IMG/VR virus record: IMGVR_UViG_3300033146_000447
Location: 1,450 to 65,449 of that record
Source: a virus
Lineage: Duplodnaviria; Caudoviricetes
Strand: one strand, 5' to 3'
Length of the DNA: 64,000 nt
The translations under genes were made by a program, and so were the position numbers. The notes beneath the pieces are model-generated. The model had not been told where the DNA came from and ran no database searches. It saw only the letters and a list, made by a program, of their open reading frames with translations. Positions 3,401 to 38,684 of this stretch are shown here, in pieces. Every line of letters begins with the position of its first letter. The first letter of the stretch is position 1.

Positions 3401-6400
3401 CTACATGCTAGTTTCTTAACTGATTGGATTAGTAAGGCACATGCAGGTAATAAGGATACTGTTGAATACATAGATGAACTTATGCAGACTGCATGGTTTA
3501 ACAACTCTAATTGGTTTATAACTGTAAGCGATACCTATAATAATATTGACAAAAGCGATGAAGCAGAAGTAACTAGAGTTAAAGAGTTAATCGTTAAACA
3601 GATGAAGAAACTAATACTACATAAAGATGGTGGTATTAAGTATGAGGTTACTAAGAAGGGTATTAAGCCTGCTAGTATTGATAATGTTGAGTTCTTAAAT
3701 ACTCAGATATATAAATACATGTCACATCTACATAGGACTAGTAAGAACTCATTAGTTGAGAATGATGAAGGTGAGTATAGAATGGATTATACCCACTTTG
3801 GTTATACTAGTATATTACCTATAATGCAACTATCAGATGCACCTGCTCAGTATAGTATAGAACATACAGTATTTCCGGTTAGAGCTAAAAAGAAGAAAGG
3901 CGTTAATGTAGGTCATGCTATAAGACGAAGTGATAGTATATTCAGAGCTTATAGTAGAGCTGTTATGCAAGAGCGTTCTAGAATGAAAGCTACTTTAGAG
4001 TTAATGATGCAAGCTGATGATAAGGGTAATTATATAACTGACGATAAAGGTAACTATGTTATACAGGAACAATATCTTAATAGTGATGGTTCATTTAACG
4101 TTGACGGCTTAGTTCCTAATAGAGATTATAAGTTAGTAAAGCAGGAAGATGGGTCTAAGAAACCTATGATATATACAATGGATGATAGAGGGTTCATGAA
4201 CATGGAGGGTAATGTATTTACATATTACTCTATACCTAGTTTAAATGAAGAAACTTCTCTATTTAATAATGGAGCTATTAACTTAGTTAATAAGGCTAAT
4301 AGTAGTGACATCATAATGAATCATATAGAACAGTTCTTTGATACAACACTAAAGGATGCTGGTAATCTAAACTTGATGTTATCTAATGAGTTGTTAACTG
4401 ATTTAAAAGAATCAAATGAAGCTATAGCGGATAGACTTATAACATTAGAATATCTATTGAATAGTCATCTTAGTTATATAGAACAACAGAACTTTATATT
4501 CGGAACTGAGAGTGAGTTTCCTTACATGTTAGATACTACTAAGAGAGCTAAAGGTCCGAGTAGTTCTGGATTAGGATTAGCGTTAATAGGAGGTAAGAAG
4601 CAATACAAGTTAGCAGTTGGTAATGAGATACAAGCTAAGAGTCTTAGTGAGGAGTTCATGCAACAATTAGATGATAAGATTGAGAATAAGAAACACTTTA
4701 AGATTATTAAGGATTTCTATAATGGTTCTTTAACTGATATTGCTGATGCTCAGGGATGGGCAACTGTTCAACGTTACGGAGAGATAATGCGTAGTCAAGG
4801 GTTGTTTGATAAGATTAGTTCTATCATGTACGCTGAACTTGTAGATGGGGCTTATGTATATTCTATGAAAGAAGGTATTGCCGTTAATGATATTGTTAAT
4901 GCTTTACAAGTGCTTAAGCCTTTCTTATATGATAGAGTTTATAATAAAGCTACTAATGATTTCCATAGTGTAATGGTTAAGTATTCATTAGTTCCTTTAA
5001 TTCCTGAATTAGTACAAGGTACAGTTTTAGCAGATATGACTAAAGCTATGGAAGAGCAAGGGATAGACGAGTTCATAATGCCTACCGCTATGAAATTAGG
5101 ACAAACAGTAGTTAATGATATATTCAACGGTAGTGAGGTAAATGAGAAAGGATTCGATAACTTGAAAGTGATTAATCTTAATAACTCTGCTTATCGTATT
5201 CAGTTAGAAGTTCCTGACCATATTCGTGATACAGAGAATAAAGCAGGTATTCAGTTAATGAAACTAATACTTACTAATCTTCATCCTGATATTAAATACT
5301 ATGATGGACTTAACGGTAAAGAGGTATTCGATAAGTTTAACGAAAGCGTGGTTAAGTTAATAAACATAACTGGTGAGGAAGTTTCTAAAGATTTAGATAA
5401 TGGTGATTATAAAACATTACTAGAGAGATTAAAACAAGGAGCTACTGATTTGAATCTATCTCCTAATCAGATGAGATATCTAGAAGATGTTGTACCTTCA
5501 ATTACAGGAGTTAAAACTAAAGTACCTGTTACATTCAGTGCTAATTATAGTAAGAACCAAAGTATATTAACAGGTATTCCTAGAAATAATATAACTAATC
5601 TTAAGCTTCCGGGTTTACACGCTGTATTACTTAGTAATGCTATGACTGGTAACAGTATGCAGTTTGAAGAAGCTAAAGGCTCTACTGAATTAAAAGAATA
5701 CTTCAATGATGAAGGTGAGTTAGTATATGAGATACTATTGCCTTATTGGACTAAAGACTTAGTAGTTAATGGTAATGTTGTAGATATTAATCAGCTTACT
5801 GATGCAGCTAAGATGTTATCAGGTTATAGGATTCCTACATCAGGAAAGCATAGTGCTATGAGACTAGAAGTTAAAGGTTTCTTAGATGAAAAACTAGGTA
5901 GTACTGTTATGTTACCTGATTCGGTAATAGACAAGACTGGTAGTGACTTTGATATTGATAGTTTCTATGTTAATACTTTTAATCTTATTCAACGTAATGA
6001 AGAAGGTAGAGTTAAGATAGATGTATTAAAGGAAAGTGATAGAACAGAGGATGATGCATTATTTGATAAGAAGATTACTCAGAATGAAGTAGCTTATATA
6101 TTAGCTAAAGTATTATCTAGCCCTGCATTAGTAGATGAGGTTATGTCTCCTGCTTACTTCGAGTCATTAAAACAAGATAGTGAAGATATAAGGTCTATAC
6201 TAGATAGTAAGACTAATTATAGTGCAGCTAACCCTTTTCAGCAACTAGCGTTTAGGAATGATGCTAATAATGGTAAACGTGTATTAGCTGCGGGTGCGAA
6301 TACTAATATAGGACTTGCAACATTGCAGGGTTTGAAGGCTGCCTTCTCTTACACGGGGAATCTAGTGTCCATCCCATATTCTAAAGCGACTATCGTTGAG

Positions 6401-8623
6401 TTATACGGTAAAGATTGGAAAGCTAAGTTAGAGCGTAAGTACGGTAAAGATAATGTAAAAGTTATATCTAAGGTTGTCGCTCCTACCGATACTGCTGTTA
6501 TTATAACAAGTAAGACTATTGGTTATACTCATAATAATTCATTTACAAATGTATATGGGGATAATATATTAGAATCATTTGCTCAGATAATTGACCAAGC
6601 AGCTGATGCTGTTAAAGCACCACTAGTACCTAACTTAACTATAGAGAGTTTTGGTGTATGGTCAGGATTAGCATACAGTGGGGATACCAAGTTTGCTAAC
6701 TACATGATGGGTCAAGAGGTTATGGCTATGACTTTAGAATCAATGCAAGAATCTAAACGATTGATAGAGCAAGGTAATGGTATTAATGTATTTGGTCAGA
6801 CTAAGATAAAATTAATGAATCGTGTATTCAAAGACTTAACAGTAGATGAATATACTAGACTACTTAAAGCTAAAGGTGTTAAACCTGAGGATAAGTCAGC
6901 AGAGGATATGTTAAAAGTCTATGAAGCAGTTAAGAAGAAAGTAGCTAATTCATATTACAAGAGTATAACTACTAAACAATTCGCTGAGTTAGGATTAGAT
7001 AAGGTGTATGAAGCATCTGATGACTTTACTATGAATACTGAACAACTTAGAGCTAACATTGTAAACTATGCTAATTATAGTGAGCTTAGTACTAGCAAGA
7101 AGTTTAAATATGATAAGAATCAATTCATAATACTTAATAGACTTAAAGATGCTGAACAGATAGGTAAAGACTTAAGAAGTGTTATTGATACATTAAATTT
7201 TGATAAGAAAGGTTTAGGTGCAACGATTGATGAAAATAATAGTATATTAGATAACATTGTAGAGTATAGTAATAATTCAACTAAGGCTATAACTACTAGA
7301 GGTGGTAGTGATTTAATGCAGGCTGTATATCCTAACTTCTTTAAACATTATGTTAATGGTTACGATATAGATTTAACTAAAGGTAAGGTTGAACAGACTT
7401 TAACATCTAGTTACCCTTTATTAGAGACATATCTAATCGAAGGTGTAATGCGATATAAAGAACTATACAAAGACTTTCTACCTTATAGTAGAGATAATAG
7501 AATGTATGCTGAGATATTCGATACTGTTTCTAAAATGTATGGAACTCCTGTTAATGAATATGGAGCTTTAAGCAATCAAATAGTATCTGTTATTAATAAC
7601 TTCGCTATTAGATTTAATTCTCCTAAAGATGCTCTAAATCTATCTAAAGGGGATGAGCATAGACTATTAGGAATAAATAAAGTGTTTAATTTTGATAAAT
7701 CACTTGAATTTAGTAAATTCAGAGAACTGAGTGTAGGTCAACAGTTGGAGTATGTTAAGAAGACTAATAGTAATATAATTAATGATAGTAACCTTCTGTA
7801 TTATCTTATACCTGAAACGGATGCTAATAGAGTAGCTATGAGGGGTTATCATCATATTAACTTTACACTAGTTAGTAAGAATGAATTACAAGAACAAGTG
7901 TTACAAGAAAGCTTTATGTCTATGTTTCAAAGTGAAGACTTATACATTAGAGAGCTTATGATTAACTTAGTTAAGCATAACTTTATAACTGTTAACTTTA
8001 GTAATGCTTATAACTCATTCAATAGAATAATACCTTATGATGTATTAATAGGGGAAACCTTTGAGATACAACATGGTCTATATCAAGTTGAGGATATGTT
8101 TAAAGAAGATGGTAGCGTTCATATGAATGCAGGTATATTAAAGAATTATGTATCTCAGCAGTTATCTGAGAATGCTGCTATTCTACCTGATGCTCCTAGC
8201 TTAGCGATAGGGGAAGAGTATATGTTAAACGCTACTAAGTCTAATGGTTCAAATAGATTCTCACATCGTATTATGAGGTCAGAAGTAGTAAAGGTTGAGG
8301 ATGCTGACGGTAAGTATATGTTCTATAGAACTACTGAGGTTAATAGAAGATATATCGGACCGGATAAGGATGGTATTGGAGACCCAACGTTATACGTAGA
8401 TGACGAAAGAGGTAATCCTCATTTACTACTACAACGATTAGATGTTAGTAATACTACAGCTAGTCTTAATAAACATAATGATGTACAACTAGCGAATATT
8501 AAAGAAGCTATGACGCTTAAGCAAGAAGTTATAATAAGCCCTAAGCCTGTAGATATGGCACGTATAAATGATATATTAAAATCAGAGAAGATAAGTACTA
8601 ATAATATAAGCAATAAATGTTAA
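455..8623 (+). CDS. Virion-packaged two-barrel RNA polymerase (phi14:2 gp66-like) with N-terminal zincin-like domain
   Basis: 2722 aa; GYRIPT...TGSDFDIDS catalytic motif (DFDID at 5945-5959); HEVIH at 1325-1339; sits among giant genes. Confidence 0.9.
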   Translation: MDCLQVSSNDFDTSLEALTKALTGVKVLNKFNREITPSHESAKGIALSRFRMNEGQPMHLDRKGNPSKLFAEIMDIVDNSYIDATALISELHTPNFNDWYGRFEEEPSYTRKGNEIIIKHRTGVIENNGATFVLAPHMQEKSLLDNNGKFAKGRDKYQSVALPVPTRDAQTQAQADRTIARLLNVDKLSDGAVLNNSFINNIIANSNTTNSSLLNILKPFFNTGSIKGWERTKGLTVRIEEHPEKDSTLDKGLVVEGQYSKRNHSITLYTSSLNGISTTEVANELARVLTHEVIHSFTASTIALAQRGLYSITIAMAEESEAGKRHTARFNELTLKQQKEELTKEEVNEYKVLQLATKNSKDKTSVRVAKAKERYYAAINSLYASAKRNKPDHIAYSSLSEFAAYGITDAGIMEDLSNMKSARDKETGLFAKFVKLVSELFDSILSTFNNKYSIEGSKLEDLLTTTLTFANHQTPTHRRLTKESLKKIQTQRLSSHDSLSREAKLNALKTFYGNITRDLEGLRNEILDAKLAESVRGANPNANDKKINSLIKQEIDNFVKGKVIGELNTYSHALTKEIESKQKVKAISLKKGRFSKQKLEILDGEILRVESYKSFVDNIVLELNNTNTLWSMFMNHMTINNEDIIKLNTKLDNEALNGNEYDSLLSMLIDKTNSRSIKESTLNVVAETLKGLSKHHFNIMTNSTEQVINPFTGLNELINVNDTLMDLYSSLANITSMEHMMDKLHERIEINPSLAALEQILIDDANLRSAFYANFNKALLPTSYQLYQRITVQDEDGKSHTRLKMSTYNSIKSFNEKKRFEILNRQLIGLDNNLYNFDKVSEIIKELIADNSTRIMNINNPTKSKKLSAKQINTKIGKLDEVFNHLDVNIPRQAIEVVMNNYYRDKAGNYENVGIILSKVKDMIETMSSDSSPVIEAGEINKSSQRHLINNLRDIVGHFDSYIFDVIEHSYLNTEGNVENDLLHASFLTDWISKAHAGNKDTVEYIDELMQTAWFNNSNWFITVSDTYNNIDKSDEAEVTRVKELIVKQMKKLILHKDGGIKYEVTKKGIKPASIDNVEFLNTQIYKYMSHLHRTSKNSLVENDEGEYRMDYTHFGYTSILPIMQLSDAPAQYSIEHTVFPVRAKKKKGVNVGHAIRRSDSIFRAYSRAVMQERSRMKATLELMMQADDKGNYITDDKGNYVIQEQYLNSDGSFNVDGLVPNRDYKLVKQEDGSKKPMIYTMDDRGFMNMEGNVFTYYSIPSLNEETSLFNNGAINLVNKANSSDIIMNHIEQFFDTTLKDAGNLNLMLSNELLTDLKESNEAIADRLITLEYLLNSHLSYIEQQNFIFGTESEFPYMLDTTKRAKGPSSSGLGLALIGGKKQYKLAVGNEIQAKSLSEEFMQQLDDKIENKKHFKIIKDFYNGSLTDIADAQGWATVQRYGEIMRSQGLFDKISSIMYAELVDGAYVYSMKEGIAVNDIVNALQVLKPFLYDRVYNKATNDFHSVMVKYSLVPLIPELVQGTVLADMTKAMEEQGIDEFIMPTAMKLGQTVVNDIFNGSEVNEKGFDNLKVINLNNSAYRIQLEVPDHIRDTENKAGIQLMKLILTNLHPDIKYYDGLNGKEVFDKFNESVVKLINITGEEVSKDLDNGDYKTLLERLKQGATDLNLSPNQMRYLEDVVPSITGVKTKVPVTFSANYSKNQSILTGIPRNNITNLKLPGLHAVLLSNAMTGNSMQFEEAKGSTELKEYFNDEGELVYEILLPYWTKDLVVNGNVVDINQLTDAAKMLSGYRIPTSGKHSAMRLEVKGFLDEKLGSTVMLPDSVIDKTGSDFDIDSFYVNTFNLIQRNEEGRVKIDVLKESDRTEDDALFDKKITQNEVAYILAKVLSSPALVDEVMSPAYFESLKQDSEDIRSILDSKTNYSAANPFQQLAFRNDANNGKRVLAAGANTNIGLATLQGLKAAFSYTGNLVSIPYSKATIVELYGKDWKAKLERKYGKDNVKVISKVVAPTDTAVIITSKTIGYTHNNSFTNVYGDNILESFAQIIDQAADAVKAPLVPNLTIESFGVWSGLAYSGDTKFANYMMGQEVMAMTLESMQESKRLIEQGNGINVFGQTKIKLMNRVFKDLTVDEYTRLLKAKGVKPEDKSAEDMLKVYEAVKKKVANSYYKSITTKQFAELGLDKVYEASDDFTMNTEQLRANIVNYANYSELSTSKKFKYDKNQFIILNRLKDAEQIGKDLRSVIDTLNFDKKGLGATIDENNSILDNIVEYSNNSTKAITTRGGSDLMQAVYPNFFKHYVNGYDIDLTKGKVEQTLTSSYPLLETYLIEGVMRYKELYKDFLPYSRDNRMYAEIFDTVSKMYGTPVNEYGALSNQIVSVINNFAIRFNSPKDALNLSKGDEHRLLGINKVFNFDKSLEFSKFRELSVGQQLEYVKKTNSNIINDSNLLYYLIPETDANRVAMRGYHHINFTLVSKNELQEQVLQESFMSMFQSEDLYIRELMINLVKHNFITVNFSNAYNSFNRIIPYDVLIGETFEIQHGLYQVEDMFKEDGSVHMNAGILKNYVSQQLSENAAILPDAPSLAIGEEYMLNATKSNGSNRFSHRIMRSEVVKVEDADGKYMFYRTTEVNRRYIGPDKDGIGDPTLYVDDERGNPHLLLQRLDVSNTTASLNKHNDVQLANIKEAMTLKQEVIISPKPVDMARINDILKSEKISTNNISNKC
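3244..3263 (+). repeat. Dispersed GC-rich motif copy (inside vRNAP gene)
   Basis: TAGCTCCCCCGTCATAGAAG. Confidence 0.8.
6346..6364 (-). repeat. Dispersed motif copy, degenerate (inside vRNAP gene)
   Basis: CTCTTACACGGGGAATCTA on + strand. Confidence 0.6.
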
Positions 8624-13950: not shown

Positions 13951-14027
13951 CTCTTCTGACGGGGAAGCTAGAGCCTATCAGACTTACTATAATTCTATTT
14001 GAATAGTCTAGCTTCCCCGTCATAGAG
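13951..14027. repeat. Inverted pair of the dispersed motif
   Basis: CTCTTCTGACGGGGAAGCTAGA (13951-13972) and TCTAGCTTCCCCGTCATAGAG (14007-14027); 16-bp perfect arms. Confidence 0.9.
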
Positions 14028-36932: not shown

Positions 36933-37043
36933 TGTTGTTATTATTATTTAGTTGTTATTATACTTATTAGGCATCATGTATTAAAAAGCATGATAACACT
37001 TCAACATGTAATATTAAAACGTTACATGTTGAAGTGTTATCAA

Positions 37044-37370
37044 CTATTGCTTTTTGTAATCTTCAATCATTTTCTGAAAGTCTTGTATATCTTTTTCTGT
37101 GGAATTATACCTAAGCGTGTCCGAAAAATATATTCCCTCATCTCTCCCTGCATGTTCAGTATTTTCAATTAGTAAATCTATAAATTTACTTTTAGTAGGC
37201 AACACGTTGCTAACAAACTGTATAGGTAAATTTACCTTGCTCGTATTCAACTTCGCAGCTTGTTCGCTTTTGATTCTGTGCCATTCCATTACTTTTTCTG
37301 ACTTAATTTCATCTTCTCTGATGAAATCATCTATTAGTCTATCTTCGGGGTTATCGCTCACTTTTGTCAT
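37044..37370 (-). CDS. Cassette ORF 1, hypothetical
   Basis: 108 aa; stop abuts the cassette boundary; contains VNLPIQFVSN encoded by the attC-like arm. Confidence 0.65.
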   Translation of the reverse strand: MTKVSDNPEDRLIDDFIREDEIKSEKVMEWHRIKSEQAAKLNTSKVNLPIQFVSNVLPTKSKFIDLLIENTEHAGRDEGIYFSDTLRYNSTEKDIQDFQKMIEDYKKQ

Positions 37371-37441
37371 TTTATCTTCGTTTTAAATTATTACGTTATT
37401 TATTGGATAAATCTACCCATACAGCCATTCATTATACCACA

Positions 37442-37657
37442 TTAAGGTATAATATAGTTGTTATCGCATTTACTGCAATACTTAAGGTCATTGCTATTAT
37501 CAATTCCTTTTGTTGCTAATATAGGCTTATGTTTACATACAGGGCAAACAAAATGTATGTTACAGCAATCTTTAAATTCTTCTAAATAACGTGGTATAAC
37601 ATTAGATATAGCCAAATTGCCGTTCTCTGTATTTACATTCTTTTCTTTATTCTCCAT
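37442..37657 (-). CDS. Cassette ORF 2, Zn-ribbon protein
   Basis: 71 aa; CPVC...CSKC; GNLAISNVIP encoded by the arm. Confidence 0.65.
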   Translation of the reverse strand: MENKEKNVNTENGNLAISNVIPRYLEEFKDCCNIHFVCPVCKHKPILATKGIDNSNDLKYCSKCDNNYIIP

Positions 37658-37723
37658 TGTATTTCAATTTAAGTTATTTACTAATTTTATAGGGCAATCA
37701 GCCCATATCTAAACCGTTAGCAA

Positions 37724-38038
37724 CTATAAATTGCTTAACAGTTCATCTGCTAATTTATCGTAGTCTCCAATTTCTAACATTGTTATTTGTGGTCGGTTCA
37801 TTTTCTCAAACACTGCAATTAACAGTTCCCTGCGGTTGCTAACAACAGGTATAGTTAAGTTTGCTTCGTTTGTATTGTCTTTCGTGGTTAGTTCGCTTAG
37901 TAATCTTTCAGCAACTTTAAATCCTTCAATGAAACCATCTTTTACACTATTATAGTCGTGTGGGAAGTCGCTTTTAAATTCACAAACATTTGCATATTTT
38001 CTTGCTAAGTCTGTTATAAATTCTATTTTTGTATTCAT
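37724..38038 (-). CDS. Cassette ORF 3, hypothetical
   Basis: 104 aa; ANLTIPVVSN encoded by the arm. Confidence 0.65.
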   Translation of the reverse strand: MNTKIEFITDLARKYANVCEFKSDFPHDYNSVKDGFIEGFKVAERLLSELTTKDNTNEANLTIPVVSNRRELLIAVFEKMNRPQITMLEIGDYDKLADELLSNL

Positions 38039-38117
38039 TACGCTCTCAATTTAAGTTTATATCTCGTATTATCTTCGTAGGTCAATCAAAGGCAAACCTA
38101 ACTATACCTGTGGCTCG

Positions 38118-38432
38118 TTAGCCTTCATTTCCCAAAGCCCTATTTATTGCATCAAGCATTTCATCCAATACGGGTTTTGTTAAGTAGTTTCTTTCTCCAC
38201 TGCATCTGTAAGCAGATTGTAAAGCATCTAATAATTTAGGTGCATTTGCTATTAAGTTAGCATCAGCACGTTTATTTAAGCTTTCACAAACAATATAACC
38301 ACCATAATATCTTTTTTCAGACTCATAATCTTTTTCATTGTATGTTGGTCTCAATGTCTTTTCATCAGTAACTATATTGCTAAAATGATTACCTATTTTC
38401 CAGTTCCCTTTTGTTCCTTTAAATTCCTGCAT
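38118..38432 (-). CDS. Cassette ORF 4, common small phage protein
   Basis: 104 aa; FKGTKGNW...ANLIANAPKLLDALQ; TAA stop coincides with the TTA of the boundary core. Confidence 0.7.
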   Translation of the reverse strand: MQEFKGTKGNWKIGNHFSNIVTDEKTLRPTYNEKDYESEKRYYGGYIVCESLNKRADANLIANAPKLLDALQSAYRCSGERNYLTKPVLDEMLDAINRALGNEG

Positions 38433-38684
38433 CTTTCTAAGGTTTAAAACGAAAGCCTAACACTAAGTATAGCAAATAAGCTTTCTAAGTTTGTATTAAA
38501 TTATTAAATTCTATCTATGGTTTACATTACCATATTATTGTCGTTATACTTTATTAGTCATGTTAAACCCTGTAGCACTAGCATTATTACGGCAGTGATA
38601 GGACTACTAGTGACTACAGGGTAATGAAAATAACAACCGAACTATGAAGCTCGGTTATTATCTGAAACCATTGATGATTTGAAA

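Follow-up and report, generated by a model that had tools for sequence, protein, structure and literature searches.

Positions 37037-38543 of a 64,000-nucleotide stretch from the virus record IMGVR_UViG_3300033146_000447 probably hold an integron-type array of four cassettes without an integrase, that is, a cluster of attC sites lacking integron integrases (CALIN); from its sequence, we give this reading a probability of roughly 0.8. The window, as we call this whole stretch, makes up 64,000 of the 65,449 bases of the record, which is 69% complete. The genome carrying the array is, judging by a terminase nearest to those of crAss-like phages (35.5% identity, expect value (E) 1e-128), that of a distant, marine crAss-like phage, and the gene layout fits this assignment, with two giant open reading frames (ORFs), a replication block on the minus strand and small ORFs after it. 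An earlier note on this DNA had proposed that the block consists of integron cassettes. Our results support that proposal: a covariance model built from sites outside the window finds those within it, and three of the four units carry the signature of a cassette circle. Since the record contains no integrase, the array is filed as a CALIN and not as a complete integron.

The block comprises four units, with lengths of 395, 285, 401 and 426 bp, and every one of them has a single small minus-strand ORF and a single imperfect-palindrome site. Together with a terminal hairpin, the four sites are packed in 1.56 kb with one ORF each; the sites are read on the minus strand, and the palindromic hairpin on either. 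Cassette 1 (37037-37431, minus strand) carries ORF1 (37044-37370, 108 aa). Its site (site 1, 37209-37436, 228 nt, minus strand) has a deviating 5′ core, TATAAT, and a 3′ core GTTAGC, and spans the ORF1 start codon and the first ~50 codons of the gene. Cassette 2 (37432-37716, minus strand) carries ORF2 (37442-37657, 71 aa, with a CxxC...CxxC arrangement), whose start codon, at 37657, sits in the loop of site 2 (37595-37721, 127 nt, minus strand; 5′ core GCTAAC, 3′ core GTTATA). Cassette 3 (37717-38117, minus strand) carries ORF3 (37724-38038), a two-module protein of 104 aa, and site 3 (37838-38122, 285 nt, minus strand; cores GCTAAC and GTTAGC, with a bulge of 5 nt on the 5′ side and 1 nt on the 3′ side) spans both the ORF3 start and its N-terminal module. 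Cassette 4 (38118-38543, minus strand) carries ORF4 (38118-38432, 104 aa, phrog_1273), the TAA stop codon of which is formed by the first three bases of the cassette; its site 4 (38456-38548, 93 nt, minus strand; cores TATAAC and GTTAGG) is weak or decayed and lies entirely upstream of the gene. Three of the four sites hence enclose a start codon, and the TAAC/GTTA pair is present in sites 2, 3 and 4 as well as in the terminal hairpin.

The unit junctions fall where the earlier note had put them, at plus-strand G/TT in three cases (37036/37037, 37716/37717 and 38117/38118) and at A/TT in one (37431/37432); we place a fifth junction at 38543/38544. It is also the case, as had been noted, that the arms differ among the four sites and yet stay self-complementary, and no long direct repeats join the units or their intergenic regions. 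The longest direct repeat is the coding region common to ORF1 and ORF3. These genes are paralogues (the N-terminal half of ORF1 matches ORF3 with E 6e-5) and they carry an arm at the same position, with compensating changes. After ORF1 the block ends in a perfect hairpin (36991-37042, no strand assigned), with 21-nt arms that are 100% complementary, a 10-nt loop and the cores GATAAC and GTTATC; it contains the G/TT junction at 37036/37037, and a short T run follows it on the minus strand. This hairpin is probably the terminator of the array's transcript. With cores that match those of the sites, it is also the probable point at which a first cassette would have entered.

Support from outside the window comes from a covariance model, R1, built from 38 sites none of which lies in the window. 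When both strands of the 64 kb were searched, its three best matches were 37721-37595, 38548-38456 and 38122-38004, all on the minus strand and at unit boundaries, the fourth lying elsewhere in the window with E 2. Site 2 is matched at full length (37721-37595, model positions 1-129, 41.6 bits, E 7e-8), the match at 38122-38004 is the 5′ half of the long site 3, and site 4 (38548-38456) scores 13.7 bits with E 0.33, which fits the decay that the earlier note had described for the fourth right arm. The AAC and GTT(A) cores are invariant in the alignment of the 38 outside sites, and compensatory changes occur in 17 of the 22 predicted pairs of the family. Most non-redundant members (27/46) are 120-139 nt long, and longer ones exist in both bacterial (189-242 nt) and viral loci (203-222 nt).

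The family reaches well beyond this phage. It recurs in a 42-kb virus contig (94% complete, without a tyrosine recombinase), where a row of small genes has the same kind of site at almost all of its junctions; no terminase or DNA polymerase common to this phage and the window was found at E <= 0.01, a weak answer obtained without a positive control. A 20-letter pattern taken from the sites of that contig matched 13 viral and 59 genome stretches, of which ~17 genome matches would be expected by chance (our own arithmetic, for even base composition). Bacteroidales, Bacteroidota or Bacteroidia are named in 26 of the 59 genome titles, and a further 17 titles name taxa that we take to be Bacteroidota. 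Furthermore, R1 matched 72 of 151 sampled Bacteroidota genomes (E <= 1e-5), while a blastn search with two family sites against 50,697 deposited phage records returned one partial match only. One 129-nt member is ~95% identical over many Bacteroidota assemblies and a few labelled as other phyla (L023, L037, L041, L047, L051, L062, L068, L077, L078, L081 and others). It has a sharp edge at its 5′ core, followed in a subset by ~300 nt of conserved flank without a convincing ORF, and in L047 and L051 it sits amid restriction and other defence-type genes.

We then asked with which sequence the 3′ core of each site pairs. The rationale of this comparison, made over 6 nt, is that in a hairpin that evolved in place the 3′ core and its flank should pair with the adjacent 5′ core of the same site, whereas in a cassette inserted by crossover they should pair with the far end of the unit, that is, with the core of the next site. 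In the window, own-core and far-end pairs numbered 0 and 4 for site 1, 0 and 6 for site 2, 3 and 5 for site 3, and 4 and 4 for site 4, so that the far end won in three of the four units, the own core in none, and one was tied. Extending the comparison to 9 nt at site 2 gave one pair with its own core and eight with the far end; as a reference, at least five pairs arise between random 6-mers in 0.85% of trials. The same pattern is seen across the family. Among 37 bacterial units, mean pairing was 2.32 with the own core and 5.24 with the far end (far end winning 34, own core 0, ties 3), and among 35 viral units it was 2.31 and 4.34 (30, 4 and 1, respectively), although some of the viral units belong to a tandem repeat in contig L022 and are hence not independent. 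The earlier note's claim that the internal core of each unit complements that unit's own left boundary accordingly stands for three units of the window, and is left undecided by the tie in the fourth. We read far-end pairing as the hallmark of integron cassettes and as the trace of crossover at G/TT. The repeat in L022, which is also found in the viral contig L015, is of ~2.45 kb and contains several family sites per copy.

In bacteria, the sites form arrays of a single polarity with one or two ORFs between consecutive sites, and these arrays adjoin a recombinase. In a Paludibacteraceae chromosome, an array of at least 14 R1 matches ends ~900 bp from a gene for a 444-aa tyrosine recombinase, which scores 221 bits on NF040815 (cut-off 220) and is the best TIGR02249 match of the genome. 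Homologues of this protein adjoin arrays in L024 (42% identity, E 2e-101) and L017 (E 1e-57), making three loci in all. A second array on the same chromosome holds at least 13 more matches, and its cargo includes SIR2 with HerA and a RelE/ParE toxin. Taken together, the same-polarity arrays, the AAC/GTT cores, the covariation of the arms, the circle signature and the adjoining recombinase in three loci lead us to read the family as integron attC sites, and the view that it behaves as such in Bacteroidota chromosomes is supported by these sequence features.

Two of these loci deserve a brief description. In the Paludibacteraceae chromosome, the SIR2-like and HerA-like genes stand as one unit between two sites (L084:12255-14989, plus strand), likely a defence system carried as a cassette. 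L017 is a 327-kb contig classed as viral, in which the integrase-like homologue (4590-5318, minus strand, 45% identity over 253 aa) lies next to the sites (5661-7765, minus strand). The ORFs of this array are in the sense orientation found in viruses, and the orientation of the recombinase gene relative to the sites is the opposite of that in the two bacterial loci.

Related sequences allowed us to see where likeness to the window stops. They come from two metagenome DNA runs (marine sediment and hydrothermal vent) as short pieces 80-99% alike to the window; none of them spans the block, and bins left uncovered are not evidence. The likeness of these pieces ends at 37036, 37434, 37712-37719 and 38113-38120, within ~4 nt of the predicted junctions, and one piece that differs from the window in 5 of 153 letters stops matching at 37036. 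The earlier note had named breakpoints away from the G/TT cores as what would speak against cassettes; in these contigs, likeness does end at the predicted junctions, which, given how short they are, lends the cassettes weak support. The half-sites are the most widely shared pieces of the block in the two runs, with summed depths of 152 and 159 vs ~2 to 64 over the covered ORF bins. Mosaicism also extends into the genes. Metagenomic relatives of ORF3 (P0002-P0026) share either residues ~1-50 or residues ~65-104, fused to unrelated partners, with identity of up to 91-95% over the shared half, and they switch in the part of the protein that corresponds to the inner arm and core of site 3. Some proteins, of 58-62 aa, consist of the N-terminal module alone, and relatives bearing this module in L003, L007 and L008 have no stem, so that the stem is no trait of that protein family.

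These data bear on a first alternative, in which genes are shuffled at conserved regulatory stem-loops as co-infecting phages undergo ordinary homologous recombination, in the manner proposed for the promoter-terminator stem-loops (PeSLs) of T4-type phages and with no dedicated recombinase. The high sharing of the half-sites would be expected from it, as would breakpoints at the edges of half-site pieces, start codons included, and the joining of the ORF3 modules at the inner half-site. We nevertheless consider it unlikely. The circle signature implies that crossover takes place at a single fixed position of the core, the arms of the four sites differ and no long direct repeats are found between units, and in bacteria the family adjoins integron-integrase-like genes. 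Homologous exchange may be the cause of the half-gene mosaics in an array that is otherwise of integron type.

A second alternative arises from the orientation of the genes. In the portion of PMC5027507 drawn on here, recombination of attC takes place on the bottom strand, the one whose 5′ arm contains AAC. By this description the phage ORFs lie on the bottom strand and each gene has the site at its 5′ end, an arrangement absent from the account given in the earlier note. The other viral loci show the same bias. Of 55 viral sites, 50 have the AAC-bearing strand in gene-sense orientation and 1 has it antisense, while 3 are mixed and 1 has no neighbouring ORF; 26 of these sites enclose a start codon. 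Of 113 sites in bacterial loci, 79 have that strand antisense to their genes and 12 have it sense, with 16 mixed and 6 lacking a neighbouring ORF. The stems could be RNA leader hairpins that evolved in place, running from the upstream stop codon past the next start, which couple translation or guide the processing of a polycistronic mRNA without any site-specific recombination.

In favour of such leaders are, in addition to the gene-sense orientation of the best-folding strand and the enclosed start codons at the viral sites, a pair of the family structure that is G.U in 31 of 38 sequences, the recovery of stems in the minimum-energy fold of the transcript strand, and the location of the ORF4 stop codon within a core. 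We regard this alternative as improbable, because in 30/35 viral and 34/37 bacterial units the partner of the 3′ core lies in the core of the next site and not in that of its own site, and because the arrays adjoin recombinases. Furthermore, the antisense orientation of the family at 79/113 bacterial sites means that a function in mRNA cannot explain its conservation. Sense-strand RNA hairpins or PeSL-like elements were in fact our first reading of the stems, and were dropped as the main explanation after the bacterial arrays, their recombinase and the circle signature were found. A role as leader may exist on top of a cassette origin.

The long-range arms announced in the earlier note are borne out by stem statistics. 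The stem of unit 3 (38115-38092 with 37864-37841, 24 nt, score 48) tops the stem lists of both the minus and the plus strand, and together with that of unit 1 (37426-37406 with 37236-37216, 21 bp including 3 G.U, score 42) it makes up the two best ungapped stems with a span of 30-450 nt on the minus strand of the whole window; the minimum-energy fold of that strand recovers both. By itself, the stem of unit 2 (37712-37693 with 37621-37602, score 32) is at noise level, and it is the outside covariance model that validates it. All wobble pairs in the stems are G.U on the minus strand. That the repeats are chance matches in A+T-rich DNA, or the arms of invertible, phase-variable segments, is barely credible: under a lenient score in which gaps and G.U are allowed, units 1, 2 and 4 are indeed equalled by 13/189, 19/189 and 120/191 random segments, but unit 3 is equalled by none of 191, and both ideas are contradicted by the stem ranking, with the top two minus-strand stems of the window lying in the block, by the match of the outside model to site 2 (E 7e-8) and by the circle signature. 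The idea of an invertible segment was rejected as none of the 10 listed contig joints shows a change of strand, although rare forms can escape contigs.

Several observations weigh against an integron-type array. The window ORFs are inverted with respect to canonical cassettes, in which the top strand encodes the ORF and attC follows it: here the coding strand is the one with AAC in its 5′ arm. The sites also depart from the published dimensions of attC, which the available text of PMC5027507 gives as a length of 57-141 bp with an unpaired central spacer of 5-6 nt on each arm: sites 2 and 4 (127 and 93 nt) fall in this range, whereas sites 1 and 3 (228 and 285 nt) exceed it and hold half an ORF. 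In addition, the spacer is beside the core and asymmetric, as had been noted earlier, with 4-5 nt vs 1-2 nt. The 5′ core of site 1 deviates, and site 4 is weak (E 0.33). In the contigs, which are short and 80-99% alike, some breakpoints coincide with start codons or with the inner core (37836-37853). The bacterial recombinases score under the TIGR02249 cut-off (204.6 vs 265) and about equally on Xer models. Finally, no tyrosine recombinase was found in the 65,449-bp, 69%-complete record, either with PF00589 or by tblastn with the bacterial recombinase, which extends to the whole record what the earlier note had said of the window.

In the integron-type array that we favour, a crossover within the core, at G/TT on the plus strand or AA/C on the minus strand, linked each cassette to the next, as the pairing signature shows. 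The insertions would have been made by an integron-integrase-like recombinase, supplied by the host or encoded in the unsequenced third of the phage, and the terminal hairpin with its matching cores would probably have received the first cassette. The transcript would carry each folded site as a leader, and the conserved half-sites within the ORFs may allow the exchange of half-genes. A broader scheme can be put forward only tentatively, as we hold it for somewhat doubtful. Bacteroidota phages might keep a cassette pool of their own that is reversed relative to the bacterial one, with the ORF on the recombining strand, attC as a structured 5′ leader containing the start codon, and both cores serving as exchange points for whole genes and half-genes. 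The recombinase family and the site family would be those of host defence arrays, with polarity keeping the cassettes of each side silent in the arrays of the other.

Integrase-less arrays in virulent phages are already known. According to the parts of Qi et al. 2023 (PMC9892861) used here, 17 integrase-less attC clusters occur in phages, virulent ones included, IntI1 recombined five of six tested sites, and a terminator with inverted GTT cores lies beside one array, in phage TJE1. The array described here resembles these in being an integrase-less row of attC sites with small ORFs in a lytic-type phage, in its terminator hairpin with inverted GTT cores, and in a recombinase that is assumed to act in trans. 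It differs in that those clusters were found by general attC detectors in deposited phage genomes and some of their sites were assayed, whereas this one is known from sequence alone, and in its setting: a crAss-like phage, a site family of Bacteroidota, and inverted ORFs most of which start inside a site. As far as could be seen, the inverted orientation, the start codons inside sites and the family shared with Bacteroidota are new. Our literature search found no published account of inverted cassettes in phages, a point on which the supplementary tables of PMC9892861 may bear.

With chromosomal integron arrays, as far as the text of PMC5027507 considered here describes them, the sites share AAC/GTT cores, an imperfect hairpin with covarying arms, a single polarity, a core crossover that splits the site of the circular cassette and, in the Bacteroidota loci, an integrase-like neighbour gene. 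Unlike in those arrays, the spacer at the core is asymmetric, two window sites reach 228 and 285 nt, the ORFs are on the recombining strand and the record has no integrase. The extra-helical bases, which in attC face the AAC of the bottom strand from the opposite arm, are not consistently on one arm either; single-base bulges occur on one or the other arm in ~9 and ~10 of the 38 sequences, by our reading of the alignment. Integrons have been reported in Bacteroidota (10.1101/2022.02.06.479319, as far as its text was available). The T4-type PeSLs, in what PMC2839356 and PMC4122927 offered in part, are likewise conserved intergenic stem-loops that flank small variable ORFs in a plastic region of lytic phages and have been linked to modular shuffling. 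Their action is attributed to homology between similar copies; here the copies differ and the junctions point to a fixed-point crossover, and near-identical copies around each ORF were not found, the intergenic regions being without long direct repeats. For the early transcripts of a crAss-like phage, the portion of 10.1101/2020.03.07.982082 on which we draw reports that a shared motif upstream is absent.

An array of this type would give crAss-like phages a concrete and testable means of acquiring and exchanging small accessory genes. The site family matched about half of the sampled Bacteroidota genomes, and its bacterial arrays have defence and toxin-antitoxin genes as cargo, so that a single recombination system may serve both hosts and phages. 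The flip in orientation bears on how cassettes arise and are expressed, an open question in the integron field, and R1 can be applied to viral and bacterial collections.

As for the cargo, ORF4 belongs to phrog_1273 (function unknown, E 2.9e-16), and ORF2 has a weak, NrdC-like match (phrog_9774, E 0.002); searches of Pfam, PHROGs, PADLOC and PDB sequences gave nothing beyond the ORF4 assignment and the weak ORF2 match. A tblastn search with ORF3 found no match in phage records. No relatives were obtained in viral contigs, either by single-protein searches with ORF3, ORF4 and the 544-aa neighbour or with an alignment of the ORF3 C-terminal module. In deposited phages, ORF4 has relatives only as hypothetical proteins from phages of Klebsiella, Salmonella and Escherichia (32-39% identity); the gene has moved over long distances among phage groups.

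The 3.5 kb around the block had no blastn match in the 50,697 phage records. No tRNA was found in the window, and Rfam at gathering threshold gave nothing there and a single tRNA across ten loci. The earlier note had also called the block compositionally foreign. This holds for its T runs, those of at least 4 T numbering 15.9 per kb against a mean of 3.1, about five times the density of the window and a value reached by 0.4% of equal-sized windows; it does not hold for G+C, which is ordinary (0.316 vs a window mean of 0.331). Away from the block, the third-best minus-strand stem of the window is a perfect 16-bp, G+C-rich hairpin with a 34-nt loop at 13957-14022, just past a 1746-aa ORF, and is terminator-like in appearance.

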